A stretch of DNA of 22,381 nt from Promethearchaeota archaeon (GCA_048941265.1 JBHLNT010000064.1:1-22381); one strand, 5' to 3'; shown: positions 2,478-20,697, counted from the stretch's first letter. The notes: generated by a model not told the origin, from the letters alone. A program made the numbers and translations.

Positions 2478-3404
2478 TTATTTATAATACGAGGCTTTAG
2501 TCTTGAATCCAATGAGAATCAATATAAATGAAAATAATATTCCTGCTTCTCCTATTAATGTAGCAATTAATAATCCTTGGATTGTGGTGGTTAAGAATAA
2601 ATAGATCAATATTTGGGGAAGAAAATGAAAAATAAGGTAAGATATAAAGCCTAAACTAATAAGTAAGCAATTTATTTCTGGTAAAATTTTTCCTTTATGT
2701 GCTGAAATGAACACCCAAATTATTGGGCAGAGTACAGAAGAGAAAATTAGATAAACAACCAAAAGAAGTAGTACATTTGGGGAAAAAATTATTACAGTTA
2801 GATATGCTCCTAGCCAAATTACTAATACAACTTTTACTTTTTTTTCAATTACCTCATCTTTATTTAAATTTTTTTCTCTAAAATATCGTTTAAATAAAAA
2901 TAAATATGTTCCGATTGAGAGGAGAGCTAAAGTGCTAAATGCTCCAATAATCTGTCTGATTTTGTATATATTTAGAATTAAGCTATTTGAAAAAAGCCCG
3001 TTTCCAATATACATAATAAATATAGTTATATCCAAAAATTTTATGACAGAATTAATATAAAAAAATAAACCAAAAAGCAGAGGAATATCAAAATAGTTTT
3101 TAATATCTTTATTTAACCACTTTTTTATAAAGAAAAATGATAAACTTAACGAGATAATTATTCTCAGTGCTATAACAATTAACAAGAATATAAAATAATC
3201 AATATATTCAAAGGAGTTAAAAATTTGGATGATTTCTTTAGTATGCTCTAAGTAAAAGAAAATATATGTAATCAAATAAATGAATATTATATTACTCAAT
3301 AACAATCCTATTATTAGCAAATTCGCTTTATTTTTTTGATTAGATTCTAATCGAACTCTATATTGAGATGATTGAGATGATTTTATGTTTGGCTCTTTTT
3401 TCAT
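2478..3404 (-). CDS. Orphan polytopic membrane protein (7-8 TM), paralog 4
   Basis: About 8 hydrophobic segments. Shares W..DIPLLFGLFFY, KFLD, AHKGKILPEINCL and IGFKTKA with the three other paralogs. Confidence 0.85.
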   Translation of the reverse strand: MKKEPNIKSSQSSQYRVRLESNQKNKANLLIIGLLLSNIIFIYLITYIFFYLEHTKEIIQIFNSFEYIDYFIFLLIVIALRIIISLSLSFFFIKKWLNKDIKNYFDIPLLFGLFFYINSVIKFLDITIFIMYIGNGLFSNSLILNIYKIRQIIGAFSTLALLSIGTYLFLFKRYFREKNLNKDEVIEKKVKVVLVIWLGAYLTVIIFSPNVLLLLVVYLIFSSVLCPIIWVFISAHKGKILPEINCLLISLGFISYLIFHFLPQILIYLFLTTTIQGLLIATLIGEAGILFSFILILIGFKTKASYYK

Positions 3405-3410
3405 ATTTCA

Positions 3411-4280
3411 TCATCTATAACTGACTCTCGTTTTAAAACCAATCAAAATGATTATAAATGAGATTAAACTTAAGATTTCCATTATCATTACACTAATTAC
3501 TTCAGCATCTAAAATAAAACAATTCAGAACTAAAGCTATAAATGGCAAGGAAATTTGAGATAAAGCATAGATAAAAAATCCTATACTTATAACTAAACAA
3601 TTTATATCTGATAAGATGTTCCCTCTATGTGCTCTATAAAAAATCCAACTAATTACTAAAAAAATAAAGCAAATTGCTATTATAACCAAACGAATATAAT
3701 ATAAATTATTTAAGAAGTTTAAAATGATGATCCAAAAACCAAAATAAATGGATAAAAAAGCAATCGTATTGTTTTTAATAATTTTTCTTATCTCTTGGTA
3801 TGATTTATCTAGATTTTGTTTATATAGATAGAGATATAATCCCAAGATATAAAGCGGTAAGACTGTTACTACTGCAAAAATATATCTAAATCTAGCCAAA
3901 TTTATTAAGTCGATATTTGAAGATATTTCAGGATTTATATATATTAAAGCCATTATTAAATCTATTAATTTGCCGATAATAAATAAATAAAAAAATACAC
4001 CTAAGAGAAAGGGGATATCAACTACGTGCTTTTCTTCTTTAGATTGCCATTTATGAAAAAGAATAGAGATTAAATAACTTGAAATAATAACTTTCGTTAT
4101 AGTAATTCCAGTGATAAGAATCAGATAATTTGAATAATGGGAATTAAGATAACATGTTTTTATTTCTTCAAAACTCATCAAGCAGAAATATATTATGACT
4201 AACGAATAAATAACTAACAGAATTAAAAATAAGTAAATGATCGGAAATAAATTAGTTCTGCTTTTTTTATTAAACTCCAT
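3411..4280 (-). CDS. Orphan polytopic membrane protein (7-8 TM), paralog 3
   Basis: DIPFLLGVFFY, GKLID, AHRGNILSDINCL, IGFKTR. Only 6 bp separate it from the next paralog, so they are probably co-transcribed. Confidence 0.85.
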   Translation of the reverse strand: MEFNKKSRTNLFPIIYLFLILLVIYSLVIIYFCLMSFEEIKTCYLNSHYSNYLILITGITITKVIISSYLISILFHKWQSKEEKHVVDIPFLLGVFFYLFIIGKLIDLIMALIYINPEISSNIDLINLARFRYIFAVVTVLPLYILGLYLYLYKQNLDKSYQEIRKIIKNNTIAFLSIYFGFWIIILNFLNNLYYIRLVIIAICFIFLVISWIFYRAHRGNILSDINCLVISIGFFIYALSQISLPFIALVLNCFILDAEVISVMIMEILSLISFIIILIGFKTRVSYR

Positions 4281-4386
4281 TTCAATTCTATACCGGGATG
4301 AATCTGGAATCAGATTTTTATTTTGGATTTAATTCACTGAATCTTAATATATATAATTTATTTTCCAATATTTCGTAAATTAATGG

Positions 4387-5280
4387 TTAAATCTGTAATT
4401 TTTCTGACTTTCTTTTAATTATTTTTTTCTTTCGTTTAAATCCGAGTAAAATTATTATAAAAGAAATTAAACTAAAAATTTCCATAATAATAACACTTAT
4501 TATTTCACCATCTACAATTAGAGACATTAAGATCAAAGCTGAAAATGGTAAGGTAACTTGGGAAAGAGTATATAAGAAAAAACCTATGCTTATCATAAAA
4601 CAATTTATATTTTTTAGGATTTTTCCCCTATGTGCCTCAAAAAAAATCCAACTTATTAAAAAAAATGAAACTGAAAGTCCTAACATTATAAATCGGATAT
4701 ACAAATAATTATCAAATAAATTTATAAAAATATACCAAAAAATAAAAAAAATCGTTAAAAAAATTAGAGTAAATTTTCTGATAATTTTTCTGATCTCTTG
4801 GTACGATTTATCTAGGTTTCGTTTATATATATAGAGATATAATCCTATGATGTAAAGGGGCAAAACAGTCAGTATCCCAAAAATAAAACGATATCTCACT
4901 AAAGTTATAAAGTCGCTAAAAAAAATATTAGGATCGAAGTATTCTACATACATTATGAATTCTATTAATTTTCCAAGGTTAAATAAATAAAAAAATAAGC
5001 CTAGTAGAAATGGTATATCACTATAATGTTTTTCCTCTTTTTTAAACCAAGTATTAAAAAAGAAGTGTATTAAATATCCTGATATTATAAGCTTTGCAAC
5101 TATCACGATTGCAAATGTAATTAAGTATTTTGAATAGCTATAAATGGAAAAATCTTTGATTAATTCCTGAAATTTTAATAGGAAAATATATATAATTAAT
5201 GATGTATAACAAATTATGAGATTTAGAGCTAAAGCAATCAAGATAAACGCATTCATTCTATCTTTCTTGTTGTTAATCAA
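4387..5280 (-). CDS. Orphan polytopic membrane protein (7-8 TM), paralog 2 (TTG start, or ATG 5256)
   Basis: DIPFLLGLFFY, GKLIE, AHRGKILKNINCF, LGFKR. Shares NLDKSYQEIRKII with 3411-4280. Confidence 0.85.
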   Translation of the reverse strand: MINNKKDRMNAFILIALALNLIICYTSLIIYIFLLKFQELIKDFSIYSYSKYLITFAIVIVAKLIISGYLIHFFFNTWFKKEEKHYSDIPFLLGLFFYLFNLGKLIEFIMYVEYFDPNIFFSDFITLVRYRFIFGILTVLPLYIIGLYLYIYKRNLDKSYQEIRKIIRKFTLIFLTIFFIFWYIFINLFDNYLYIRFIMLGLSVSFFLISWIFFEAHRGKILKNINCFMISIGFFLYTLSQVTLPFSALILMSLIVDGEIISVIIMEIFSLISFIIILLGFKRKKKIIKRKSEKLQI

Positions 5281-5407
5281 GATATCTTCTCTAAAACATT
5301 AGTAATTGATTATTTCTTGAATAGTTTAAGTTTAATTTTCTCAGATTTAACATTAAATAACTGATTAAATTATGAGAATATGCAATTCAATTATATTTAG
5401 ATCTCTT

Positions 5408-5440
5408 GATTACACAAAATACTTTTTTGTATAAAAAATT
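5408..5440 (-). promoter_or_regulatory. Conserved upstream element (TATA-like) of the TM paralog, copy A
   Basis: + strand GATTACACAAAATACTTTTTTGTATAAAAAATT aligns with 7579-7611. It contains TTTATA on the minus strand. Confidence 0.55.
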
Positions 5441-5552
5441 AAGCAATTTGAGATAAGTTTCAAAATATAACATTTAAGAAAGATTTGCTCTTAATTTAGC
5501 AGAAAAATAATTAAGGTTAAATTGAAATAGAACCATAGCTTTACAAATAACT

Positions 5553-5888
5553 TTATTTTTCTTTTGAAGATTTTCCCTCCCACATATCCTCAATTTTTTC
5601 CAGGAATTTATCTTTCCCAATCAATTTTTTGTAAGTTCCATCACCTTGTAGGACATAAGTTCCCGAAGATAATTGAATTTCTTCAATTTTAGTTAAATCG
5701 GGATTTTTTTGCATAATTTCTTCAGCTTTTATTTGTAAAAGGTGTAAGATATACTGCGAAACATTCTTAAACCCAAGATTTGGAAATTTTGCGATATAGG
5801 CCTCAAATAATATCCGAAGTTCATTGGGAATATTCATTGTATAATAATCATAATCTTTACGGGTTTTCTTGTGAAGATTTCTCGACAT
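5553..5888 (-). CDS. Ribbon-helix-helix (CopG/Arc/MetJ-like) DNA-binding protein, paralog A
   Basis: YYTMNIP (beta strand), NELRILFEAYIAK (helix A), LGF turn, NVSQYILHLL (helix B). ATG 5888 is preferred to TTG 5897 because it aligns with the ATGs of the paralogs. Confidence 0.75.
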   Translation of the reverse strand: MSRNLHKKTRKDYDYYTMNIPNELRILFEAYIAKFPNLGFKNVSQYILHLLQIKAEEIMQKNPDLTKIEEIQLSSGTYVLQGDGTYKKLIGKDKFLEKIEDMWEGKSSKEK

Positions 5889-5950
5889 TCTTATCAACTT
5901 CGAAAAGGAGTTTTTAATTCTGTTTAAATTAGTAATATTTTAATCTTATA

Positions 5951-5969
5951 ATAATTTCACTTAAATTTA
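5951..5969 (-). promoter_or_regulatory. 19-bp motif upstream of RHH paralog A
   Basis: + strand ATAATTTCACTTAAATTTA, identical at 8108-8126 and 8593-8611; 63 nt from the ATG. Confidence 0.7.
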
Positions 5970-5971
5970 AA

Positions 5972-6382
5972 TCAGTTTCTGATTGTGAAAAAAATTTCAG
6001 AGTTTTCTATCCAGATAAATGGTATCTGGACGCTACAATTTCTAATAATAAAATATTCACAAGAATCTTCGATTAAAATACCATTATTCATTATTACTGC
6101 ATTGATAGTGACATTTTCGATAATGTGCGGGTCTTGAGGTGCTCCTGCCCCTACTTGAATCCAATCTAACGCTGTAGATGACCGTTATCATTGAGGATAT
6201 ATATATAATCGACTGTTCAATAACCAGAGGATTTTGGATTTTTTAAGTCGTTTCATCAATATCTACACTATATTTCTTCATAACATCAGCATTATTGCTG
6301 AAATTTAGGCTGTTCATAGCTATAAGGCAAATAATAATCCTAAAACATTTAATATAGTAATTTTTTTTGATTTGAATTTCAT
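5972..6382 (-). pseudogene. Decayed N-terminal fragment of a secreted parallel beta-helix (NosD-like) protein
   Basis: Manual translation across stops and frameshifts: MKFKSKKITILNVLGLLFAL*...NPKSSGY*TVDYIYILNDN/SSTALDWIQVGAGAPQDPHIIENVTINAVIMNNGILIEDSCEYFIIRNCSV...IENSEIFFTIRN*. This matches the N-terminus of 10623-13433 (RPKTSGWW...KPYTIENITMNA...GIYIQNS..YFIIRNCTV). Confidence 0.8.
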
Positions 6383-6402
6383 CTTATTTTTACCATTTAA
6401 AG

Positions 6403-6422
6403 CATGAAATGTAAATTTCATG
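6403..6422. repeat. Perfect inverted repeat CATGAAAT-gtaa-ATTTCATG (candidate operator)
   Basis: 8-bp arms, 4-nt spacer, 21 nt from the ATG of the pseudogene. Confidence 0.5.
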
Positions 6423-6587
6423 TACGCTATCATACGATTTTTGATAGATTTTTAAAAGATTCAAATCAAGTTACCTATATAAAGGTATAAGGAACGTTCT
6501 TTTCCAATGTCTGAAAAATAAAGAATTGATAACGAATAGATTAGAAATTCTCAATTGATGCCTTTTTGCATTTTGAATAATATTATT

Positions 6588-7487
6588 TTACGCATATTCT
6601 GCTTTAGTTTTAAATCCAATAAGTAGTAATATAAATGACACAAGTGCTAGTATTTCGTTTAGTAGAGTGCTAATACCTATACCATGAATTGGAATATTTG
6701 ATAAAAGTAAGGTTAAGCAAGGTGAAAGTATATGACAAGCAAAATAAAAAATAAATCCTATACTAATGACTAAACAATTTATTTCTGGTAGAATTTTTCC
6801 TTGATGAGATTTAAAGAATAACCAACTGATAAAAACAAATGTAGAACCTAATCCTATATACAGAGAGAGGAGAAATATTAATGTTCTTGCTAAAAAAAGA
6901 AAAATTAAAAAAACTGTAGCAAAAATTCCAGAAATTAAGAAAGCTGTTTTTTTTATTAATTTTTCCTTATTTATATTTGTTTTATTCAAATCAAAATGAA
7001 TAAAATAAAAATATATTCCAATAAAGAAAAGTGGTATTGCACTTATAATTCCTAATATAATTTTAATTTTTAAAAGAGTTAATAAATTTAAAATTGGAAG
7101 AAAATCATTACCAGCAAAATTAGTATACGTAATCAAATCTAATAACTTATGGATTATCATGAGATAAAAGAAAAAAGCGAATAGGAATGATATATCACTA
7201 AAACGTTGCATTTCCTGAGATAACCATCTTTTTATGAAAAAGTAAGTCAAATATATTGAAATTAAAATCCTGAATAGTACGACAATAGTTATCATGGTTA
7301 AATAATAGGAATAGGAAGAAAATAAATAGGCTTTAATTATCTCTTGATAAAAGGTTAAGTAAAAAAAAATAAATACTAGAAGATAAATAAAAATTATAAT
7401 AAGTATTAAAAATCCAACTGCTATCTCACTTAAGTTTAAGTTGAGACTTTTAATTCTAGATTGGTTTACTTTACTTTTTAGGGACAA
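6588..7487 (-). CDS. Orphan polytopic membrane protein (7-8 TM), paralog 1 (TTG start)
   Basis: DISFLFAFFFY, HKLLD, SHQGKILPEINCL, IGFKTKAEY. Confidence 0.85.
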   Translation of the reverse strand: MSLKSKVNQSRIKSLNLNLSEIAVGFLILIIIFIYLLVFIFFYLTFYQEIIKAYLFSSYSYYLTMITIVVLFRILISIYLTYFFIKRWLSQEMQRFSDISFLFAFFFYLMIIHKLLDLITYTNFAGNDFLPILNLLTLLKIKIILGIISAIPLFFIGIYFYFIHFDLNKTNINKEKLIKKTAFLISGIFATVFLIFLFLARTLIFLLSLYIGLGSTFVFISWLFFKSHQGKILPEINCLVISIGFIFYFACHILSPCLTLLLSNIPIHGIGISTLLNEILALVSFILLLIGFKTKAEYA

Positions 7488-7578
7488 TTGATATGCGCCC
7501 TTATAAATTGAAAAAATTTTAATTAATTTTAACTAACTTTTATTTGATTGCGAGAGTGATTATAACTGAGTTCTTTTA

Positions 7579-7611
7579 GATTACTACTAATACCTTTTTG
7601 TATAAATAATT
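7579..7611 (-). promoter_or_regulatory. Conserved upstream element (TATA-like) of the TM paralog, copy B
   Basis: + strand GATTACTACTAATACCTTTTTGTATAAATAATT aligns with 5408-5440. Confidence 0.55.
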
Positions 7612-7692
7612 TCTTAATTTTTATTATGAATCAAGAAGAATGATTTAACAAGTAAAGTTATTTAGAAGGGACTATAAGAGAATATAAGGAAT

Positions 7693-8045
7693 TTAACTCA
7701 ATAATTTATATTGTTTCTCTTTTGATTTTTTTCCTTCCCACATATCTTCAATTTTTTCTAGAAATTTATCTCTACCAATCATTTTTTTATATATTCCGTC
7801 TTCCTGTAAGAGATTGGTCCCCGAAGATAACTCAATTTCCTCAATTTTAGTTAAATCGGGATTTTTCTGCATGAGCTCTTCAGCTTTAATTTGTAATACT
7901 TGTAAGATATATTGTAAACATTTTTAAAACCCAGATTTGGAAATTTTGCGATATAAGCCTCAAAAAGAATCCGAAGTTCATTAGGAATGTTCATAGTATA
8001 ATAATGATAATCTCTACGGGTTTTTTTGAGAAGCTTTCTTGACAT
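7693..8045 (-). pseudogene. RHH protein paralog B, frameshifted by a 1-nt deletion at ~7915
   Basis: Paralog A reads GTT TCG CAG (V-S-Q); here it is GTT TA CAA. The shifted frame continues QYILQVLQIKAEELMQKNPDLTKIEEIELSSGTNLLQEDGIYKKMIGRDKFLEKIEDMWEGKKSKEKQYKLLS*, closely matching paralog A. Confidence 0.88.
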
Positions 8046-8107
8046 TCTTATCAAAATTGAAAAGGAGTTTTTATTTCTATTTAAATTAGTAATAATCTAA
8101 TCTTACA

Positions 8108-8126
8108 ATAATTTCACTTAAATTTA
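8108..8126 (-). promoter_or_regulatory. 19-bp motif upstream of RHH paralog B
   Basis: ATAATTTCACTTAAATTTA, 63 nt from ATG 8045. Confidence 0.7.
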
Positions 8127-8256
8127 AATTGAATTTTTTATTTAAAAAATGGATCTATTGAGTCCATAAGATACAAACTGAATTAATTAATATTCAGACA
8201 ACGCATTTATTATTAAAATTAATCTTTTTAAATATTATTTAAAAGAGGTGAACTTT

Positions 8257-8532
8257 TTAAGATTCATTTTTTTTGTTTTTACCATTTTTATGAACAAGAT
8301 AAGTACTCGAATGTAATCTAAATTCTTCAATTTTTTTGAAATCGGGATTATTTTTCATGATCTTTTCTGCTTTTGTTTGTAAAATATGTAATAAATATTG
8401 AGATACACTTTTAAATCCTAAATTTGAATATTTTGTGATATAGGCTTCATATAACATTCGTAATTCATTAGGAATATTTAAAGTATAATAATCATAATTT
8501 TTTCTTGTTTTTTTTTGAGGCTTTTTACCCAT
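8257..8532 (-). CDS. RHH DNA-binding protein, paralog C (shorter C-terminus)
   Basis: MGKKPQKKTRKNYDYYTLNIPNELRMLYEAYITKYSNLGFKSVSQYLLHIL. ATG 8532 aligns with the paralog starts; the ORF track extends it to 8571. Confidence 0.75.
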   Translation of the reverse strand: MGKKPQKKTRKNYDYYTLNIPNELRMLYEAYITKYSNLGFKSVSQYLLHILQTKAEKIMKNNPDFKKIEEFRLHSSTYLVHKNGKNKKNES

Positions 8533-8592
8533 TTTAGTCAAAACCTTATTGGAACTGAAATAAACTGTCAAGTAATAGAGATTATTCTACCT

Positions 8593-8611
8593 ATAATTTC
8601 ACTTAAATTTA
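8593..8611 (-). promoter_or_regulatory. 19-bp motif upstream of RHH paralog C
   Basis: ATAATTTCACTTAAATTTA, 61 nt from ATG 8532. Confidence 0.7.
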
Positions 8612-8737: not shown

Positions 8738-10114
8738 ATGCTTTTAATCATATTAGGAATAATTTTCATCTTGCCAAATGTTCGGATTTCCAATGTTGAT
8801 CCTGGGCATAGCGATGAATTTGAAAAACCAGAAATCATTCTTACTGCTAGTGCTGAGGTTATACAAGAATTCAATCGAACTTGGGGAACCTCTGTTTCAT
8901 ATTGGGGAAATGATATTGCATTAGATTCCTTAGGAAATATATTTATCGCGGGAACTTCATTTAAAAGCGGAAATAGCTACGAATTATTACTTTTAAAATA
9001 TAATCGTACAGGAGATTTGCAATGGGAACGTTTTTGGGGTAAAACTTATGGTGATGAGGGTTATGCTGTGGCTATTGATTCTTCAGATGATATTTATCTT
9101 ACAGGATTTTTAAGAAGTGGTGGAGGAAATAAGGATATGTGTGTAATAAAATATAATAGTTCTGGTGAGGAACTATGGAATCGTACTTGGGGAAATGGAA
9201 ATGTTGAGGAAGTAGCGGGATTGGCAATCGATTCTTCAGACAATGTTTATCTTTCAGGATATACAAGTAGTTTTGCAGTTGGAGGTAGCGATTTCTGCTT
9301 AGTTAAATATAATAGTTCAGGAACACAGCTATGGAATCGTACCTGGGGCGGACAATTAAATGACGTTGGCAAAAATATTGCATTGGATAAATCTGGAAAT
9401 ATTTATTTAACAGGACGTTCAGCTAGTTTTGGGGCACAAAATTTTGATATATGTTTATTAAAATATAACAGTTCAGGTGATTTTCTATGGAATCAAACAT
9501 GTGGAGGAAATCTTGACGATAACGGGGCAGATCTCGCTTTGGATTCGGCTAACAATATCTATGTTACAGGATTTATAGAGACATCAGGTCCAAATCCCAG
9601 AGAGATATGTCTTGTAAAATTTAACAGTCTAAGTCAATATCAATGGAATCAAACATGGGGCTTAAAATCATATTATAATGATTGGGGTACTGCAATAGCC
9701 ATCGATCCTTCAGATAATATTTATATTTGGGGAACTATGGGTAAAGCTGTCTCTAATGATGAAATGATTCTGTTGAAATATAATAATCTTGGGCAATATC
9801 AATGGAATTATACATGGGGATACGGAAGTATTGATCATTCTGGAGGGATAATATTAGATTCTTTAAATAATATTTATTTATCAGGAACAACAGGTATTCA
9901 GGAGAAGTCAGTTCTAATAAAGCTTAATCTAATAACTCAATTACCTCCCTCTGTTTTTCCTAATGGCGATGATGATGACAATGATGAGAAGGGTGAAGAA
10001 GAGGCTATTCTCGGATATGATATGCTCATTTTGTTAGGATTAATATGTTTAACAATCATTATTATTCCTATTAAGCGATATAAATCCACAAGAAATCATA
10101 GAAATAAAAAATAG
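8738..10114 (+). CDS. Surface-anchored SBBP-repeat beta-propeller protein with Loki-CTERM-like sorting tail
   Basis: About 7 repeats of IAxDSSxNIYxxG...LxKYNSSGxxxWNxTWG. Hydrophobic N-terminus. C-terminus has an acidic linker, ILGYD, a TM helix and a basic tail. Confidence 0.85.
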   Translation: MLLIILGIIFILPNVRISNVDPGHSDEFEKPEIILTASAEVIQEFNRTWGTSVSYWGNDIALDSLGNIFIAGTSFKSGNSYELLLLKYNRTGDLQWERFWGKTYGDEGYAVAIDSSDDIYLTGFLRSGGGNKDMCVIKYNSSGEELWNRTWGNGNVEEVAGLAIDSSDNVYLSGYTSSFAVGGSDFCLVKYNSSGTQLWNRTWGGQLNDVGKNIALDKSGNIYLTGRSASFGAQNFDICLLKYNSSGDFLWNQTCGGNLDDNGADLALDSANNIYVTGFIETSGPNPREICLVKFNSLSQYQWNQTWGLKSYYNDWGTAIAIDPSDNIYIWGTMGKAVSNDEMILLKYNNLGQYQWNYTWGYGSIDHSGGIILDSLNNIYLSGTTGIQEKSVLIKLNLITQLPPSVFPNGDDDDNDEKGEEEAILGYDMLILLGLICLTIIIIPIKRYKSTRNHRNKK

Positions 10115-10622: not shown

Positions 10623-13433
10623 ATGAAATCTAATAAAAAAAAAGTCGGATTATTTATATTTTTAGGAATTATACTCGCCTTTTCAACCTTAAGCAACCTA
10701 AATATTAGCACAGGCCAAAGAATTAATGATAACAAGAAGGAAGTTCGGGAAGATACTAATTTAAGTAGACCTAAAACATCGGGATGGTGGGATAATTTCA
10801 CTTTTATTCATATTAATGGAAATTGGTCAATTGCCGCTGGGTATGAGTGGTGTACTGGCGATGGTTCACTGGACAAGCCTTATACTATCGAAAATATTAC
10901 CATGAACGCAGGTAATTCGCCTACGGGAAGTGGAATCTATATACAGAATTCCCATAATGATTATTTCATAATCAGAAATTGCACGGTTTACAATTCGGCT
11001 AGTGGAGCATATGACGCGGGAATCAAATTAGAAAATACAAATAAGGGAACGCTCACGAATAACAACTGCTCGGATAATGGAATGAATAATATCTTATTGT
11101 ACAATGAATGTGATAATAATACGTTATCGGAAAATTTTGTAAACGGTAATACATTTTACGGTATAATAATCTATAATAACTGTGATAATAACACCATAAT
11201 TGGAAACACAGTGAACGGTCATATCTTCCATGGGATATACTTATATGGGAATTGCCTTAATAACGCGATCAAAAACAATATCGCAAGTGATAACGACCAG
11301 CGTGGAATATTCTTATGGGGGTGTAGTAATAATTTCATCTCTGGTAATAATGCAAGTGATAATGGCATGATCGGGATAGACATATATTCGAATAGCCATA
11401 ATAATACCATTTCAAGAAATATAGTTGGCAACTTTAAGGTGTCGCCAAACCAAGATTATGGTCTATACTCTACAACTAATTGCGACAACAACACCATTAA
11501 GGGAAATTTCTTCAAAGATAACACCCAATATGGAATATATATAGCTGCATCAACCTGCTGGAATAATTTATTATATCAAAATTCCCTAAAAGGAAATGTT
11601 ATATCACATGCGCGAGACGATGGTACCAATAATCACTGGAATAATTCGAGAATTGGGAATTATTGGGACAACCATACAATCCCAGATACCAACAAGAATG
11701 GAATTGTTGATACCCCCTATAAGTGGATTATAGGTACAGCAGGAAGCAACGACAGTTTTCCGCTTGCCGAAAGTCCAGTTCATGATGGTGAAAAAATCCA
11801 CATAGACGATACTGGTATGAGTGCTTTAAATTGGAGCATCCTGGCTGATTTAACTTTTTGGTGTACTGGCTCAGGAACTCTTATTGATCCATATATTATC
11901 GATGGTTTAGAAATTGATTGTGCTAATTTGGGAAACGGAATTTTAGTAGGAAATTCAAGTGTTTATTTCAATATCACGAATTGCAGCGTATATAAAGCAG
12001 GAAGTGGGATATATGATGCGGGTATTAAGTTAGAAAATACAAATAATGGAAGCTTAATAAATAATACCTGTTTAAACAATGGATTTCATGGTATTCACTT
12101 AAATGATAATTGTAATAATAATACAATAATAAGAAATATTCTAAAGCAAAATGGCTATGGGATATATGTATATAATAATTGTACTGAGAACTATATCTCT
12201 GATAACACAGCAAACGATAATGGTAATGGAATAACACTAAATGGTGATTGTAACAACAATACAATTACAGGAAATAACGTAAACGATAATACTCAAAGAG
12301 GGATATACTTATATAAAAATTGTAAGAACAATACGATTTCAGAGAACAAAGCAAGTTATACTGGAATAAATACACAAAATTATGGGATATCTCTAAATGA
12401 TAATTGTGATAAAAACACAATTTCTGGAAACACAGCATGCGATAATGATTTTAACGGGATCTTTTTAGAGAATCATTGTGATAACAACACTATTTCTGGA
12501 AATAATGCAAATAATAATTCTGATAATGGCATATATTTAAATAGCTGTGATAATAACACAATCTTGCTAAATACAGCTAGTGATAATGATGAGTGCGGGA
12601 TAAAATTATGGCTCTGCTCTTACAACAACGTAACAAGAAACATCATGATCGGAAATGATAACGATGGGATATATTTAAGATCGCTTAGCGAACATAACAT
12701 AATTTCGGAAAATTATGCAAATAATAACGCTTACGGAATATGTTTAAACATAGATTGTAGATACAATAATTTTACACAAAATTACCTATATTACAATAAA
12801 TTAGGAGGATTCACAATTAATACTAGTGATTGTATTAAGAATTTATTTGAATTGAATGTTATAGTCTCTACCGTTGGTAGAGTTTTCTTTGATGGTGGAA
12901 CCAACACAATATTAACCCAGAATTATTTACGAGAATCTCCCCCTAGTTTTATTGTTGAAGTTATTGCCCAATCGTTTTCTATATCCGAATTTGTTGTTAC
13001 TCTTAACATTTCTAGTTATTGTATAGGTCTAGAGGTTTCTACTCTTACTTTTCAGATGTGGTGGAACGGAACTACGTCAACTGTAAATTATATCGCTGAC
13101 CTTGGACAAGGTTTATACAATATCTCCTTAACTCCTATACTCGTTGAGCCAGATGAGGATCCAATATTATTTAACATGACAATTTCGGCTTTATATCATC
13201 GTAGTAGATATTTTACATTGAATTTAAAGGTGGACCCTGAAACAGTTGATAAAAATCCTGAACCTACGCCCACTCCATCGGATGGAGGTGGAGGAGGAGG
13301 GGGTGATGGTGATGGTGAAGGTGATACGGCAACAGTGGTTATCGGTACAAATTTAGCAGCTTTTACAGTTGGAATTCTTACAATTGTCTCTATTATGTTA
13401 ATCAAAAAGCGAAAAAAGCTCATTCGGAAATAA
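10623..13433 (+). CDS. Secreted, membrane-anchored right-handed parallel beta-helix (NosD/PbH1-like) protein with two tandem modules
   Basis: Signal peptide MKSNKKKVGLFIFLG. Many GIYL...CxNNTIxxN repeats; GNYWD...DxxxNGIVDTPY cap. The block WCTG.G...PY.I...YDAGIKLENTN occurs twice. PT/poly-G linker, C-terminal TM helix and KKRKK. Confidence 0.88.
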   Translation: MKSNKKKVGLFIFLGIILAFSTLSNLNISTGQRINDNKKEVREDTNLSRPKTSGWWDNFTFIHINGNWSIAAGYEWCTGDGSLDKPYTIENITMNAGNSPTGSGIYIQNSHNDYFIIRNCTVYNSASGAYDAGIKLENTNKGTLTNNNCSDNGMNNILLYNECDNNTLSENFVNGNTFYGIIIYNNCDNNTIIGNTVNGHIFHGIYLYGNCLNNAIKNNIASDNDQRGIFLWGCSNNFISGNNASDNGMIGIDIYSNSHNNTISRNIVGNFKVSPNQDYGLYSTTNCDNNTIKGNFFKDNTQYGIYIAASTCWNNLLYQNSLKGNVISHARDDGTNNHWNNSRIGNYWDNHTIPDTNKNGIVDTPYKWIIGTAGSNDSFPLAESPVHDGEKIHIDDTGMSALNWSILADLTFWCTGSGTLIDPYIIDGLEIDCANLGNGILVGNSSVYFNITNCSVYKAGSGIYDAGIKLENTNNGSLINNTCLNNGFHGIHLNDNCNNNTIIRNILKQNGYGIYVYNNCTENYISDNTANDNGNGITLNGDCNNNTITGNNVNDNTQRGIYLYKNCKNNTISENKASYTGINTQNYGISLNDNCDKNTISGNTACDNDFNGIFLENHCDNNTISGNNANNNSDNGIYLNSCDNNTILLNTASDNDECGIKLWLCSYNNVTRNIMIGNDNDGIYLRSLSEHNIISENYANNNAYGICLNIDCRYNNFTQNYLYYNKLGGFTINTSDCIKNLFELNVIVSTVGRVFFDGGTNTILTQNYLRESPPSFIVEVIAQSFSISEFVVTLNISSYCIGLEVSTLTFQMWWNGTTSTVNYIADLGQGLYNISLTPILVEPDEDPILFNMTISALYHRSRYFTLNLKVDPETVDKNPEPTPTPSDGGGGGGGDGDGEGDTATVVIGTNLAAFTVGILTIVSIMLIKKRKKLIRK

Positions 13434-14383: not shown

Positions 14384-16627
14384 TTAACCTTCTGTAAATA
14401 TTTCTTTTATTAATATGGTATCATCCCTAAAGGGAGCTAGCATGCCGTTCCAGTCAGCTAAGACATTTTTATGTTTCTTCCCAAATCTGTCGATGAAATC
14501 TACTAATTGTTCTCTTATTTCAGAGGTTTCATTTCCTTTAATAAATAACGCGCCAAAAAAATTGAGACCATATTCAAGTAAAATAGTGATATCACCATGG
14601 TCTATGGTCTTTAACAATTCGGTGGATTTAGTGGTCTCTTTAATAAATGAGGTTAATGCTGAGAACATACCCGAAATAAGTCCGGGATCTTGGAGCTGTT
14701 CTTTAACAAAAGGATAATGGAGAAGATCTCTCCCGTCTTTATAAATTACGTAGAGCCCCTGTTTTTCAACTTTTTCAAATCTATAATTGAATTCGGGTAA
14801 CCAGACTTTAATTTTGTTTGTTTTATAAAGATATTGCAAGGTGCTATATAATTTTTTTTTCTCAGTTTCATTGGTAGGTAGAATCTCCTGTAAGAATTTA
14901 TCCTGTTCTAACGCATTAAGGATGCTTTTTACGTCTTCATTCTCTTGTTCTATGTTTTCTTCAGTAATTTCAAAATTTTTAGAAATTAAATATCGATGAC
15001 TCTCATTAAGATATTCTTCATGGGTTAGGAAATCTCCAATTGTGGCTAATAATGTTTTTTCCACGAATTTATCATCAATAGTGGTTGTTTTTACCTTGAA
15101 ATCTTTTCTGAAATAGAAAATCATTAAGCCCCAAAATATCGTTGCCATAAGATATCTCGTAAATAGATAGGGAAGAGCCAATACTCCTAATAATGTTATT
15201 TTACCTCCAGGAAAGAGGTTGGCGTTAAATACTGCTGTTCTGAAAGTATAGAAATTGAAGCCAAATGCATCGGTGTAACTTAGTTGCCCCGTTAGCCAAT
15301 ATTCAAGAGGCGCAAAACTAATTAAAGGATTTGCCCCAAAGTAATAAAATACAATAGAAAGAATCATCACAATAGAGAAATAGACGACGATTCCTAAAAC
15401 AATATTTCTCAAATATTTTAAACTATAGGCAAAGAGATAGGCTGTTATGAATATAGGGATTATGATTAGTACTACTAAATTAAATATGTTCATGAGGTCA
15501 AATCTGAAAGAATTTCGTAAGGTTGGATTTTTAGTGCTAAATCTAGCTGAATCTATAATGACACGATGCTCTTCCCGAAATAAACCAATAAGAGGATTGA
15601 AAACTAAAATGGATAAAATAAGAAAGATGCCAGTTGCCGCTGCACTTGAGACCAACATATAATACCAATTTGTCGCTTTAAATTTCTGCGTCTTATCTTT
15701 TCTCTTCTTCCAATATTCAATAATTTTTACAAAGATGAATATCGAGATGGGTTCAAATATTTTCAGAAATAGCACAAAGATGATTGAAACCATGATGAAA
15801 TATGCAAAAAAATAAATGATAATGAATATTGAAGCGGTGTATTGAACTATAAAGAGAATAAGAGATAAGATGGATATAGGTGCGCCAACACTATAAAGCG
15901 ATCTGTAAGTTTGTTTTCGCAGTTTGTTACCCCAGTACCTCCCTTTTATAGCAATCTTACTGGAAAATAACAATTCGATGCTAAAAATAAAAGTTGCCAA
16001 ATATACAAGTAAAATCTCGATAAACCACCCTAAAGCAGACTCACCTGTAGTTAAAGAAATATTTTGTAACCCGGATATATCTAAAATAGTCTGTAATAGG
16101 TAAAGAGAAATGGGTAATAAGACGATCATCAGTTTTAAGATTTCTTTTTCTCGTGTCCAATCATTTTTCATTAACTCTCTTCGGATTTTATCAAACGGAC
16201 TTTCATCAAATTCGTATGTGAGATAAGTCAAATTTTCTTGTATCGTTCCCTCTTCAGTTCTAAGGTGATTCCATAACAAAACAAAGGAAATAAACGGTGC
16301 TACAAGGAAGATAAACGGCAAAGTTACAAGGGGATAAAAAGCAAATAAAACAAATAGCGAACCTATATGCGCGGCCAAATATCTGATACCTAATGCAAAA
16401 TTTTCACTTTCACTTCCCTCAGTAATTAGTTTATTAGGCGCTTGTCCTATCTGAAAGATTATAGGCAAAACCCAATAAATAAAATAAAAGACAATTGCGC
16501 CCACCACAATTCTAAAGTAATATTTTCCAATACTCTTCTTCCAAATGAATAAAAGCGGAATAATCAAAATAATGAGGGGAAGACCATTAAGAAAAAATGA
16601 GAACAAAATGTCAATCATACTTTTCAC
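14384..16627 (-). CDS. Polytopic membrane protein (~11 TM) with C-terminal longin-like domain (GTG start, or ATG 16618)
   Basis: About 11 hydrophobic segments in aa 1-506. The last ~125 aa (GLYVIYKDGRDLLHYPF...DPGLISGMFSALTSFIKE...IDHGDITILLEYG..FGALF...DWNG...F...IKEIF) fit the bb-a-bbb-aa longin pattern common in Asgard proteins. Confidence 0.8.
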   Translation of the reverse strand: MKSMIDILFSFFLNGLPLIILIIPLLFIWKKSIGKYYFRIVVGAIVFYFIYWVLPIIFQIGQAPNKLITEGSESENFALGIRYLAAHIGSLFVLFAFYPLVTLPFIFLVAPFISFVLLWNHLRTEEGTIQENLTYLTYEFDESPFDKIRRELMKNDWTREKEILKLMIVLLPISLYLLQTILDISGLQNISLTTGESALGWFIEILLVYLATFIFSIELLFSSKIAIKGRYWGNKLRKQTYRSLYSVGAPISILSLILFIVQYTASIFIIIYFFAYFIMVSIIFVLFLKIFEPISIFIFVKIIEYWKKRKDKTQKFKATNWYYMLVSSAAATGIFLILSILVFNPLIGLFREEHRVIIDSARFSTKNPTLRNSFRFDLMNIFNLVVLIIIPIFITAYLFAYSLKYLRNIVLGIVVYFSIVMILSIVFYYFGANPLISFAPLEYWLTGQLSYTDAFGFNFYTFRTAVFNANLFPGGKITLLGVLALPYLFTRYLMATIFWGLMIFYFRKDFKVKTTTIDDKFVEKTLLATIGDFLTHEEYLNESHRYLISKNFEITEENIEQENEDVKSILNALEQDKFLQEILPTNETEKKKLYSTLQYLYKTNKIKVWLPEFNYRFEKVEKQGLYVIYKDGRDLLHYPFVKEQLQDPGLISGMFSALTSFIKETTKSTELLKTIDHGDITILLEYGLNFFGALFIKGNETSEIREQLVDFIDRFGKKHKNVLADWNGMLAPFRDDTILIKEIFTEG

Positions 16628-16727: not shown

Positions 16728-17825
16728 ATGACTAACGATCAGAAGATAGGGATTGTTATTGATGATGATTTTGCAGTAAAAAACAATCCCCCATATCAAC
16801 ATCCCATATTTCTTTCTTATGAAAATCCACTTAGAATAAAGGTAATTTTGGAATATTTCGAAAAAATAAATTTATGGGATGATAAAAGAATTATTAAACT
16901 TGAACCAAAGCTAATAAATGAGGGGCTATTGAATTTGGCTCATACTAAGTACTATATCAATACAGTAAAGCGACTTTCTACTTATGGAAGCGGCATTCTT
17001 GATGAGGAAGTGTTCATTACGCAGGATACTTTCTCCTTAGCAAAAAAAGCAGTGGGAGGTACCATAGAGGCAATAGAAAAGCTATTAAAAAATGAGGTAT
17101 CTCAATCAATTGCTCTGGTAAGACCTCCCGGACATCACGCCTTACGCGAAAAAGGTTCTGGGTTATGTATCTTCAATAATATTGCATGTAGCATCTTGTA
17201 TTTAAGAAAAGAAATAGGTTATAAGAAGAAACTTGCCATAATAGACATTGACGATCATTTTGGAGACGGATTGGTTCAATATTTTTACGATGATCCAGAT
17301 GTGCTTTATTTCTCAATCCACGAATTTGATTTTATAGAAAATGATCTTGGATTTATAAATGAACTAGGAGAAGGACAAGGATTAGGAAAAAATATTAATT
17401 TTCCTGTTCCAGCGGGGATTACTGATGACGATTTTTCGGTATTTTTCAATATACTGGAACCAATTCTAAAAGAATATGAACCAGATCTTATTATCGTGGC
17501 AATGGGATTTGACATGTATTTTGATGATCCCATTGGAAATTGTTTATTAACTAGCATTTCTTACCATAAATTTGCCGAAAAACTATTAAGTTTAGCGCAG
17601 CAAGTCTGTGAAGGTAAATTAGCTTTTATTTTAGAAGGAGGATACAGTCTCATAGGTTTACCTATCTGCCTTCAGGCCGTTACATGTGGTCTATTAAATA
17701 AAAAGTATGAACAACCGCTTTTTGAAAAAATTATTTTTTCAAGCGAATCAAAAATGGAAGAAGTAGTGCAAATCAAATCGAAATTAGAGAAACTTTTGAA
17801 GAACTATTGGAATTCTTTAAAGTAA
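16728..17825 (+). CDS. Zn-dependent histone deacetylase family protein (HDAC/AcuC superfamily)
   Basis: ENPLRI, RPPGHHA, GLCIFNN, DIDDHFGDG, SIHE, NINFP, GFD....DPIG, LEGGY. Confidence 0.93.
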   Translation: MTNDQKIGIVIDDDFAVKNNPPYQHPIFLSYENPLRIKVILEYFEKINLWDDKRIIKLEPKLINEGLLNLAHTKYYINTVKRLSTYGSGILDEEVFITQDTFSLAKKAVGGTIEAIEKLLKNEVSQSIALVRPPGHHALREKGSGLCIFNNIACSILYLRKEIGYKKKLAIIDIDDHFGDGLVQYFYDDPDVLYFSIHEFDFIENDLGFINELGEGQGLGKNINFPVPAGITDDDFSVFFNILEPILKEYEPDLIIVAMGFDMYFDDPIGNCLLTSISYHKFAEKLLSLAQQVCEGKLAFILEGGYSLIGLPICLQAVTCGLLNKKYEQPLFEKIIFSSESKMEEVVQIKSKLEKLLKNYWNSLK

Positions 17826-17850: not shown

Positions 17851-18255
17851 TTATATAACCTCTGAAAGCTTTTTAGCATATTCTTGTACTGCAAATAATG
17901 CATCGCGAGGTCCCACTTGAGGGTTAATATAGCATATCAACGCACCTGTACCTCCAATGGGAATAGGTGCTATTATTATATGTCCCTTTCCGGTTATATT
18001 AGTGCCTATTTTCCTCTCTTCAGTATTCTCTACAATCATATATTTTATGCCAAGGATCGAAATGCTGGTCATACCTTTTTGACCAAGTTCAAGTTTCGTC
18101 TGAACAAGCTCGTTAATCTGTGCTAAATCTCCAGTAATGTCCCAATTATCCGTTTGAGTTAATAATGTCCCATCTCGATTTACAATCGCCACACCGAATA
18201 TGTTTTGTTCTTCATTTAATAAATCATCAATAATAGATTCGATATCAGAAGACAT
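17851..18255 (-). CDS. Profilin (Asgard/Loki type)
   Basis: 134 aa. TQTDNW, GIKYMIVENTEERKIGTNITGKGH, PIPIGG and NPQVGPRD...VQEYAKKL match Lokiarchaeal profilins as I recall them. Confidence 0.93.
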   Translation of the reverse strand: MSSDIESIIDDLLNEEQNIFGVAIVNRDGTLLTQTDNWDITGDLAQINELVQTKLELGQKGMTSISILGIKYMIVENTEERKIGTNITGKGHIIIAPIPIGGTGALICYINPQVGPRDALFAVQEYAKKLSEVI

Positions 18256-19845: not shown

Positions 19846-20697
19846 ATGCATGAGCTTATATTTTATAGCCTGATAATACTAGTTTTTATAAGAGTAATTG
19901 GATTTATTGTTTCAGTTGATTTCTACTATGATACAAAATGGGAAACTTATATTTATTCCGCACTTGGTTGGAGTTTGTGGACCATAGCTGGAATATTTCC
20001 ATTGCTTTCAGAGGTTACTACTAATCAAATGCAGAAAGAGTTTTTTCTTTTAATGAATCATATTCTCGGACCATTAGCATTAACATTTTTAATAATCACA
20101 TTATCTTCCTATTATCTTAATATATCTCGTCCTAGAATTCTGCTTTTTTCTCTAATCTTAATAGTATTTCCAATAATTATTTATTTTACTTTGGGCCTTG
20201 AGTTTGTTTCAATTTTTGCTCGGATCTTCCAGTTTTTTATAATAATCCTTATGTGTTTGTTGCCACTTTTTAAGTTTAAAAATTTTAAGGCCAGGATTGG
20301 TAAAAGTATTAGATGGTATTATCTCATATGTATATCAATAATTCTATATATCCCCCTAGTCACCTTAAATATAATAAATAATGCAAATTTTAGATTTTTC
20401 CAGAGTGAAAGCATTCTTCTCATCATGATAGTTTATACTTCTATCATTATAATGACTATTTTAATTATAGCTTTTATGATTCATTTAGAATATAATGTTT
20501 CAGTTGAGCAGAAGAAGAAATTAAAGGATAAGTACTCTCATAACTTAGGAAATGTGTTACAAGCTATTGAATCTGCTCGTTTTTTAACAGAGAAGAAAAA
20601 AAGTATGGATAATAATAGTGTATTAGAAGTTGAAGATATTATTGAAAAGAAGTTTAGGGAGGCTGCTGAAATATTAGAAGAGATTAGAAAACTCTAA
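19846..20697 (+). CDS. 7TM membrane sensor with C-terminal HisKA/DHp helix pair and no ATPase domain
   Basis: About 7 hydrophobic helices, then H-box-like KYSHNLGNVLQAI and a second helix ending EILEEIRKL. No N/G1/F/G2 boxes follow. Confidence 0.7.
   Translation: MHELIFYSLIILVFIRVIGFIVSVDFYYDTKWETYIYSALGWSLWTIAGIFPLLSEVTTNQMQKEFFLLMNHILGPLALTFLIITLSSYYLNISRPRILLFSLILIVFPIIIYFTLGLEFVSIFARIFQFFIIILMCLLPLFKFKNFKARIGKSIRWYYLICISIILYIPLVTLNIINNANFRFFQSESILLIMIVYTSIIIMTILIIAFMIHLEYNVSVEQKKKLKDKYSHNLGNVLQAIESARFLTEKKKSMDNNSVLEVEDIIEKKFREAAEILEEIRKL

Follow-up and report, generated by a model that had tools for sequence, protein, structure and literature searches.

A small ribbon-helix-helix-like protein and an eight-helix membrane protein form a conserved, unannotated gene pair in Asgard archaea

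We analysed a stretch of 22,381 nucleotides (the window) from a Promethearchaeota archaeon (GCA_048941265.1 JBHLNT010000064.1:1-22381), which is part of a 5.0-Mb Asgard genome. Between positions 2,478 and 8,611 the minus strand carries genes for two kinds of protein, a small protein that resembles ribbon-helix-helix (RHH) regulators (three genes, RHH-A to RHH-C) and a membrane protein with eight helices (four genes, TM1 to TM4). A gene of the first family followed by a gene of the second is a real and conserved module, and it is unannotated and apparently undescribed in the literature searched. An earlier sequence-only reading of this DNA had recognised no named system with such a layout, and we likewise found none, either in profile libraries or in that literature. 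The explanation that we favour, tentatively and at rather less than an even chance, is that an autoregulated RHH-type regulator is coupled to a receptor-like membrane partner, and possibly also controls divergently transcribed surface-protein genes.

Scans for relatives of the small protein gave 36 loci, of which 23 encode a long form and ten a short form; two are cut at a contig end and one is a non-relative. On 23 of 23 long-form contigs with readable downstream sequence, a gene of the membrane-protein family lies directly downstream on the same strand, separated by -43 to +291 bases (many loci have 39-60). Such a gene also follows in all five other long-form genomes (G008, G016, G219, G229 and G247) among 400 phylum genomes. 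Some loci nearly duplicate each other (L061/L071 and L072/L080), and L060 and L062 are the loci of G229 and G247, so there are fewer independent cases than counted. No membrane-protein gene is present at the ten short-form loci; in eight of them the contig continues downstream for at least 600 bases, enough to show its absence. The pairing proposed by the sequence-only reading is thus a genuine linkage, and its recurrence in other genomes places the layout beyond chance.

The two families have also diverged together. In a tree of 51 membrane proteins (six partial RHH-linked open reading frames (ORFs) and one partial core ORF were left out), a single branch (SH-aLRT 98) unites 17 RHH-linked proteins with the four window copies and excludes the 26 plus four members that we refer to as core. 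Pairwise distances in the two families are correlated over 18 pairs (Mantel r 0.70), and none of 2,000 permutations gave a value as high.

The families differ greatly in breadth. In its own genome the small-protein family is confined to the window, and the membrane-protein family has four further, more distant members on three other contigs, with no RHH gene nearby. We identified the small protein in three of 60 related genomes (weakly in one of them) and the membrane protein in 48. Among the 400 phylum genomes, the small protein is present in 16, all from the taxonomic family of the window; the membrane protein is present in 187, including 118 of the 134 members of that taxonomic family, and nearly all of these lack an RHH gene. 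Unlinked homologs therefore exist on one side of the pair only: the broad membrane-protein family is mostly unlinked to RHH genes, but the long-form RHH gene was never found without its own clade of membrane protein.

This breadth bears on another option of the sequence-only reading, a toxin-antitoxin or abortive-infection-like pair in which an RHH antitoxin would neutralise a membrane-damaging protein via its C-terminal tail and repress the operon. Type II antitoxins have an N-terminal RHH domain and a C-terminal tail that binds the partner, and their genes come first in the pair, behind a palindromic operator. The architecture described here matches that layout. The patchy distribution, the low G+C content of the module region (24.2%, vs 30.5% genome-wide), an adjoining DUF559/REase-like gene and a weak match to TacA1 in two of 32 members are also consistent with such a pair, and the weak co-folding result (below) is equally compatible with it. 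However, the toxin would have to be a protein of 290-310 amino acids (aa) that is present in almost half of the phylum genomes, almost always without an RHH gene. In addition, TM3 and TM4 have no cognate RHH gene, TM1 is intact though RHH-B is broken, gaps of up to 291 bases occur together with a separate promoter-like element, and no toxin or defence family was matched in Pfam, NCBIfam or PADLOC. We thus disfavour this option and consider it improbable.

The small protein begins with a basic arm (KKTRKDYDYY), a short strand (YTMNIP) and helix A, followed by PNLGFKNVSQ and helix B. Its C-terminal part consists of a hairpin (SSGTY.LQEDGTYKK) and then a terminal helix, in which, over 27 long forms, W106 never varies and L99, K101, I102 and M105 seldom do. 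Long forms have 98-123 aa and an end helix like LLEKIEDMWE; short forms have 76-89 aa and lack that helix. No significant match to a curated profile was found for the small protein in the Pfam, NCBIfam, PHROGs and PADLOC libraries. Even at E values up to 5, a Pfam scan of 32 members returned only the two TacA1 matches (best E 0.0089, short of the cut-off). A scan of the genome for RHH_1 matched 11 other loci and none of these small genes, and the best that the small-protein profile reached among PDB sequences was E 0.15, with unrelated proteins. The small protein was not found fused within longer proteins, which the search tool itself rates as weak evidence.

Comparisons of fold point weakly in the RHH direction. 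When aligned by hhalign with the 11 RHH_1 domains of the same genome, the strand, helix A and a G-x-x-x-S cap fall in register (weak, P 0.011, probability 4%). The nearest Atlas structural clusters include RHH_1, CopG and TacA1 types, at low TM scores of 0.37-0.43. The monomer model is poor (pLDDT 61.5), with helices at 25-37 and 48-64 and no strand called. This is unsurprising because RHH proteins fold as intertwined dimers. Thus, the RHH label is plausible as a fold assignment but is not demonstrated, as the curated RHH profiles are not significant. We nevertheless consider it probable that the small protein is an RHH-type DNA-binding autoregulator.

For a DNA-binding regulator, the upstream element is better evidence than the fold comparisons. 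The exact 18-mer AAATTTAAGTGAAATTAT precedes each of the three RHH genes. The sequence-only reading had reported a 19-bp motif before two of them; the element is indeed an exact repeat, but it is 18 bases long and stands before all three. Four matches at up to three mismatches occur in the window (0.53 expected), and the 16-base core is found at exactly three sites in the entire genome, each upstream of an RHH gene. We did not identify a wider regulon in the genome: 13 copies of the 16-mer with one mismatch occur elsewhere, vs six for the reversed control, from which no clear regulon emerges. Across loci the element takes the form AAATTT-N5-AAATT, which is near-palindromic with two half-sites one helical turn apart. 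It is present in 23 of 35 upstream regions (160 nt), compared with 54 of 2,152 background windows (2.5%) and 1.2% of shuffles, and at most long-form loci its distance from the start codon is 71-92 nt. Some stand-alone short forms that lack a membrane-protein gene (e.g., L083) also have this element upstream.

A different role for the small protein would be that of a cytoplasmic subunit or adaptor of the membrane protein that does not bind DNA, in which case the upstream motif would be merely a promoter element. The lack of a significant RHH model would be expected of an adaptor, and the co-folding result gives it weak support. Yet the strand-helix-helix pattern falls in register, if weakly, with that of RHH_1 domains, the protein has a basic N-terminal arm, and a near-palindrome with two half-sites is typical of an operator and accompanies short forms that have no membrane partner. 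An adaptor of this kind is thus quite unlikely.

The 33-bp motif of the sequence-only reading is also real. The elements upstream of TM1 and TM2 are identical at 27 of 33 bases (counted by hand from the alignment) and form an island of 69% identity. This element is probably the promoter of the membrane-protein gene itself.

The model of TM2, which rests on an alignment of 12 sequences, has eight helices (pLDDT 77.6, pTM 0.77). The number of Lys plus Arg residues per loop alternates along the protein (3.8/0.2/1.9/0.6/4.7/0.2/2.2/0.1/3.5). Therefore, both termini lie inside, and helices 2-8 run from an outer N terminus to an inner C terminus. Conservation is higher in the cytoplasmic half than in the outer one (entropy 1.56 vs 1.95, p 1e-5), and in all six pairs of window paralogs the identity of the inner half (41-66%) exceeds that of the outer half (19-43%). 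Four buried charged residues (K104, D107, R131 and E267) are kept throughout the family. So are cytoplasmic motifs (W78, D88 and K..LP.[IV]N), including in members from genomes without any RHH gene. The best explanation of the model is one N-terminal helix followed by a seven-helix bundle, which may be arranged as in G protein-coupled receptors (GPCRs). A Foldseek search of the model against the PDB returned nothing at E <= 1e-3.

The membrane protein, like the small one, is without a usable match in Pfam, NCBIfam, PHROGs or PADLOC, and no transporter or enzyme family in Pfam or NCBIfam matches it. An exhaustive profile search for the family returned 172 representative clusters and no relative with a name. 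Within the top 150 of these 172 representatives, long forms are limited to P0096 and P0124 (512 and 514 aa), in which the core eight-helix protein is fused to a DUF998-like domain and not to an RHH protein. Core members are also repeatedly followed by a six-helix protein of about 230 aa that is weakly DUF998-like (E 7.5e-4), for example in L021-L023, L035 and L037 and on a contig of the genome studied here (C222:5735-6433). This suggests that the core eight-helix protein and the DUF998-like protein are a functional pair, independent of any RHH protein.

Genes for Ras/Arf-family GTPases lie within 1.5 kb of core eight-helix genes at four of 31 loci (L036:2617-3267, L037:2910-3425, L045:3110-3751 and L046:2555-3164, the last two being orthologous). 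This proximity may be due to chance and is no evidence of coupling, because Asgard genomes hold many such GTPases.

Two named families were considered for the membrane protein and rejected. The idea of an archaeosortase/exosortase (EpsH) was raised because neighbouring surface proteins carry C-terminal anchors. There is no match to the Exosortase_EpsH profile in Pfam or NCBIfam, and core members have other residues in place of H228 and C238 of the stretch AHRGKILPEINC. A search of the genome for PF09721 was also negative; this is a weak test, with the control positive in only one of 14 genomes. A HisKA_7TM sensor was suggested by nothing more than an Atlas feature score (0.82) that links the protein to a cluster with this domain in 10% of its members, and there is no Pfam match to PF16927.

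We co-folded two copies of the RHH protein with TM2, each with its own alignment, and ran three controls. The scores were 0.60, 0.60 and 0.59, vs 0.03 for the best control, and the runs agree in at least 63% of contacts, with a partner pLDDT of at least 81. The calibration set had 116 passes among 157 solved complexes and two among 215 mismatched pairs; passes at or below 0.60 comprise just 18 of the 157 solved complexes and both of the passing mismatches. The result therefore gives weak support to a contact between the two proteins, of a kind that the calibration makes doubtful. Taking the strict gene linkage and the co-folding together, we put the chance that the small protein binds the membrane protein at a little under one half.

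We propose that the pair is a lineage-restricted two-gene signalling module of Asgard archaea. The RHH-type regulator would bind AAATTT-N5-AAATT before its own gene, and would thus regulate itself; surface-protein genes transcribed divergently from the shared intergenic region may be further targets. The membrane protein would act as a sensor and an anti-regulator. It would bind the regulator, probably via the extra beta-hairpin and the Trp-bearing C-terminal helix, and this binding would set the amount of regulator free for DNA. Among the options of the sequence-only reading, a receptor-like sensor with a dedicated transcription factor is thus the best fit, in which we infer DNA binding, physical coupling and sensing. 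A more elaborate version appears unlikely. In it, the membrane protein would hold and release the regulator through the Trp tail helix and so switch its own operon and a neighbouring repertoire of adhesin-like surface proteins, with the four paralogs as receptors of different specificity feeding one regulator family.

Several points weigh against coupling to a receptor. The likeness of the model to GPCRs is within the range that helical bundles can reach through arrangement alone. The co-folding pass is weak, comes without reported contacts and, at this level, would be wrong more often than right unless binding were likely beforehand. The association of the tail with an adjacent membrane-protein gene may reflect one evolutionary event, because the long form may be a single clade. 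As far as their distribution indicates, the conserved cytoplasmic motifs are not a dedicated dock for the RHH protein, because they are also kept in members from genomes without one. TM3 and TM4 have no RHH gene of their own, and RHH-B is broken. Finally, the membrane-protein gene in this genus seems to have its own promoter.

Alternatively, the pair may consist of a plain regulator and its target. The small protein would then repress or activate the membrane gene, and perhaps surface genes, without contacting the membrane protein, which could be a transporter, an enzyme or a structural factor (e.g., for surface-protein handling). This would account for the conserved operator motif, the short operon-like gaps between the genes and the presence of surface-protein genes beside the module. 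The polar residues kept in the bundle (K104, D107, R131 and E267) could form a substrate or ion site, and the core family, which adjoins or is fused to the DUF998-like six-helix protein, works without an RHH protein. Plain regulation does not explain why the hairpin and Trp helix of the long form are conserved exactly where a membrane-protein gene follows. The co-folding result, which exceeded its controls (if weakly), and the lack of a transporter or enzyme match also count against it. We consider it possible but on the whole rather unlikely.

The sequence-only reading held that regulator and membrane protein had been duplicated together as a unit. Our comparison of unit B (8160-6588) with unit A (6002-4387) contradicts this. 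DNA identity is 83-90% from the motif to the end of the RHH gene, drops abruptly to about 50% at the RHH stop codon, recovers in the island at the 33-base element and is 45-65% across the membrane-protein genes. TM1 and TM2 are about 55% identical in DNA and about 35% in protein. A single copying event thus does not account for both units, the RHH blocks being much more similar to each other than the genes behind them. The same difference is seen between the families: the RHH copies are 61-85% identical to RHH-A, and the membrane-protein paralogs are 33-55% identical overall (34-38% to TM1; 55% for TM2 and TM3).

Third-codon-position identity is 0.69 for RHH-A and RHH-B, 0.54 for RHH-A and its ortholog in the sister genome G008, 0.45 for TM1 and TM2, and 0.51 for TM2 and the G008 membrane protein. 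The tree joins the G008 protein to TM2 and TM3 (support 100), away from TM1 and TM4. Together, these results place the split of the membrane-protein paralogs before the divergence of the window and G008 genomes. RHH-A and RHH-B are the largest outlier in the co-divergence plot (+3.3 sd), and thus the RHH block was copied or homogenised later than that split. RHH-C is 79% identical in DNA to a short upstream RHH gene of G008. As judged from these sequences, the RHH-plus-promoter block was copied, or homogenised by gene conversion, after the membrane-protein genes had separated. The membrane gene would have multiplied to four diverging paralogs in this genome, and the regulator-plus-promoter block would later have been copied in front of a second paralog, with one regulator copy becoming frameshifted. 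The left edge of the RHH-A block cuts a beta-helix gene.

Features of the array and of its neighbours are listed in Table 1. The gene order given by the sequence-only reading (RHH-C, RHH-B with a frameshift, TM1, beta-helix remnant, RHH-A, TM2, TM3, TM4) was confirmed by the ORF listing.

Table 1. Features of the minus-strand array and its neighbours, with positions counted from the first letter of the window.
Feature	Position	Strand	Description
TM4	2478-3404	-	divergent paralog; 6 bases 3' of TM3
TM3	3411-4280	-	without an RHH gene of its own; 106 bases 3' of TM2
TM2	4387-5280	-	eight-helix membrane protein; paralog used for the structure model
33-base element	5408-5440	-	TTTATA box, upstream of TM2
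RHH-A	5553-5897	-	intact long form: basic arm, strand-helix-helix, beta-hairpin, C-terminal helix with invariant Trp
Operator-like motif, copy 3	5951-5968	-	exact 18-mer, upstream of RHH-A
Beta-helix remnant	5972-6451	-	N-terminal part of a secreted surface-protein gene; stops inside, truncated at the edge of the RHH-A block
TM1	6588-7487	-	eight-helix membrane protein of the RHH-linked clade
33-base element	7579-7611	-	TTTATA box, upstream of TM1
RHH-B	7693-8054	-	long-form RHH-like; two ORFs (7851-8054 and 7693-7872), single frameshift just past the GFKNV codons
Operator-like motif, copy 2	8108-8125	-	exact 18-mer, upstream of RHH-B
RHH-C	8257-8571	-	small RHH-like, without the C-terminal Trp helix; limits from ORF listing, alignment favours start ATG at 8532
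Operator-like motif, copy 1	8593-8610	-	exact 18-mer, in the divergent intergenic region of RHH-C and the SBBP gene
SBBP beta-propeller protein	8738-10114	+	secreted, C-terminal membrane anchor, divergently transcribed; conserved neighbour type
NosD/beta-helix surface protein	10623-13433	+	secreted, C-terminal anchor; with the SBBP gene, a pair also present beside the module in L060

The array is bounded by the SBBP beta-propeller gene on one side and by the DUF559/REase-like gene (1709-2329) on the other. The latter, a DUF559 or REase_MTES_1575-like gene of endonuclease fold, directly adjoins the low-G+C membrane-protein array. The beta-helix remnant is genuine: frame 5972-6184(-) is 46% identical to residues 76-121 of a beta-helix surface protein of the sister genome (E 2e-9) and also matches the window's own 936-aa beta-helix protein, and a signal-peptide-like piece is present in another frame (6320-6451(-)). 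The frameshift of RHH-B may be a real break or an assembly error. A long-form RHH gene from a metagenome (L094:990-1312) is likewise frameshifted, a few codons from the position of the RHH-B break; the gene may have decayed independently, the shared A/T-rich stretch may be hard to sequence, or the cause may be another.

It could also be supposed that the module is cargo of a mobile element or virus, with a viral or plasmid-type small regulator that captured a host membrane gene (e.g., for exclusion or surface remodelling) and an array that lies in a variable island. The patchy distribution within one family of genomes, the low regional G+C and the beta-helix gene broken exactly at the edge of the RHH-A block would fit this. 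So would the short-form relatives, which lie amid many small genes of no assigned function, a second small RHH-like gene, and methylase-like and restriction-like genes. These short-form loci may be part of a mobile element. However, a scan of 2.9 million viral contigs gave 64 candidate stretches and no confirmed relative, and the RHH protein has no PHROGs match. No integrase, transposase, repeat borders or terminal repeats were seen in the window, and the flanking genes are of housekeeping or host type (e.g., thermosome and profilin). We give mobile cargo only a slim chance.

In several short-form loci the RHH gene is divergent from the second small gene, which is RHH-like in appearance (MSYITLQLERDLIEKIKEIARNK...; L083:3174-3861, L084, L063 and L088:463-1152).

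Surface-protein genes recur beside the module. At nine of 13 distinct loci with at least 1 kb of upstream sequence, the product of the gene divergent from the RHH gene is large and has a signal-like N-terminus; those that are complete also have an anchor at the C-terminus (signal peptides and anchors were judged by eye). Pfam domains were identified in the divergent neighbour at six of the nine: SBBP in the window, NosD/beta-helix in L059, FG-GAP in L061/L071 and L079, fn3 in L081 and CBM in L070. The Pfam scan found no family in the divergent neighbours of L062 and L076, and the ninth locus, L110, was outside the scan. A NosD/beta-helix gene is also the second gene beside the window module and L060. 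L060 thus has an SBBP and beta-helix pair, as in the window, with the SBBP gene behind a winged-helix gene. It is not one of the nine because the winged-helix gene is directly upstream of its RHH gene. Such a winged-helix regulator (HVO_0163 N-terminal helix-turn-helix type) is divergent from the RHH gene in three loci (L060:6698-7471, L068:877-1569 and L078:1-437). The motif lies within the shared intergenic region, and therefore control of the surface-protein genes is a reasonable extension; from this arrangement, the regulator possibly controls them also.

The product of the SBBP gene ends in (P/L)GY(D/S), a hydrophobic helix and a basic tail, as do those of L059:4912-7308, L059:3251-4915 and L081:1048-4155. 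We take these C-termini to resemble sorting signals of the PGF-CTERM type.

Other genes of the window include a profilin-family gene (17851-18255; Pfam E 9.4e-6), an Asgard eukaryotic signature protein, beside a gene of the histone-deacetylase family (16728-17825). Two further membrane proteins, a 747-aa protein (14384-16627) that has many helices and ends in a soluble part, and a 283-aa multi-helix protein with a C-terminal soluble segment (19846-20697), have no match in Pfam or NCBIfam. By hhalign, both are unrelated to the eight-helix family (probability 0.1% each). The C-terminal segment of the 283-aa protein presumably resembles the H-box region of histidine kinases.

RHH antitoxins and repressors of the CopG/Arc/MetJ superfamily include RelB, ParD, TacA and CopG, as well as Mnt, which has a C-terminal oligomerisation helix. 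The small protein shares with them its size, the basic arm, a probable strand-helix-helix pattern, a candidate G-x-x-x-S cap before helix B, a C-terminal extension, the position of its gene as first of a pair and the near-palindromic motif upstream. Unlike them, it lacks a significant RHH profile match, its extension is a hairpin plus a Trp helix, and its partner is a polytopic membrane protein rather than a soluble toxin. Regulators that are held at the membrane by polytopic proteins are found in the Mlc-PtsG system of E. coli and among membrane anti-sigma factors. The logic proposed here, in which a membrane protein sets the free regulator by binding it, is alike, but the folds are unrelated and the binding in our case is only weakly predicted. 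The closest systems for the membrane protein include the 7TM domains of eukaryotic GPCRs (TAS2R14 and class C 7TM domains) and designed GPCR-like folds.

Asgard proteins with a GPCR-like 7TM fold have been put forward, as GPCR-like structural clusters, as candidate eukaryotic signature proteins (bioRxiv 10.64898/2026.10.28.762692). These share with the present protein the Asgard lineage, a predicted receptor-like seven-helix fold and a conserved inner face, and differ in that the partner here looks like a DNA-binding regulator. The small protein can be likened, by description, to aCcr1 of Sulfolobales, a small transcription factor of RHH type that has viral homologs (PMC9976878). Both are small archaeal proteins of RHH or RHH-like type, from families with members in differing genomic contexts, but aCcr1 is not known to be linked to a membrane protein.

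Asgard archaea have several receptor-shaped seven-helix proteins, and the module supplies a concrete candidate partner for one of them: a small protein whose tail and putative DNA target are both conserved, and which comes with a linked membrane gene. If the two proteins are coupled, the module would be a minimal route by which a 7TM-type receptor acts on gene expression in the lineage closest to eukaryotes, and might explain how large surface proteins are switched in these cells. If they are merely a regulator and its target, the analysis still adds two unannotated protein families, an operator motif and an Asgard-wide eight-helix family, which is present in 187 of 400 phylum genomes and, in some, fused with a DUF998-like membrane protein.

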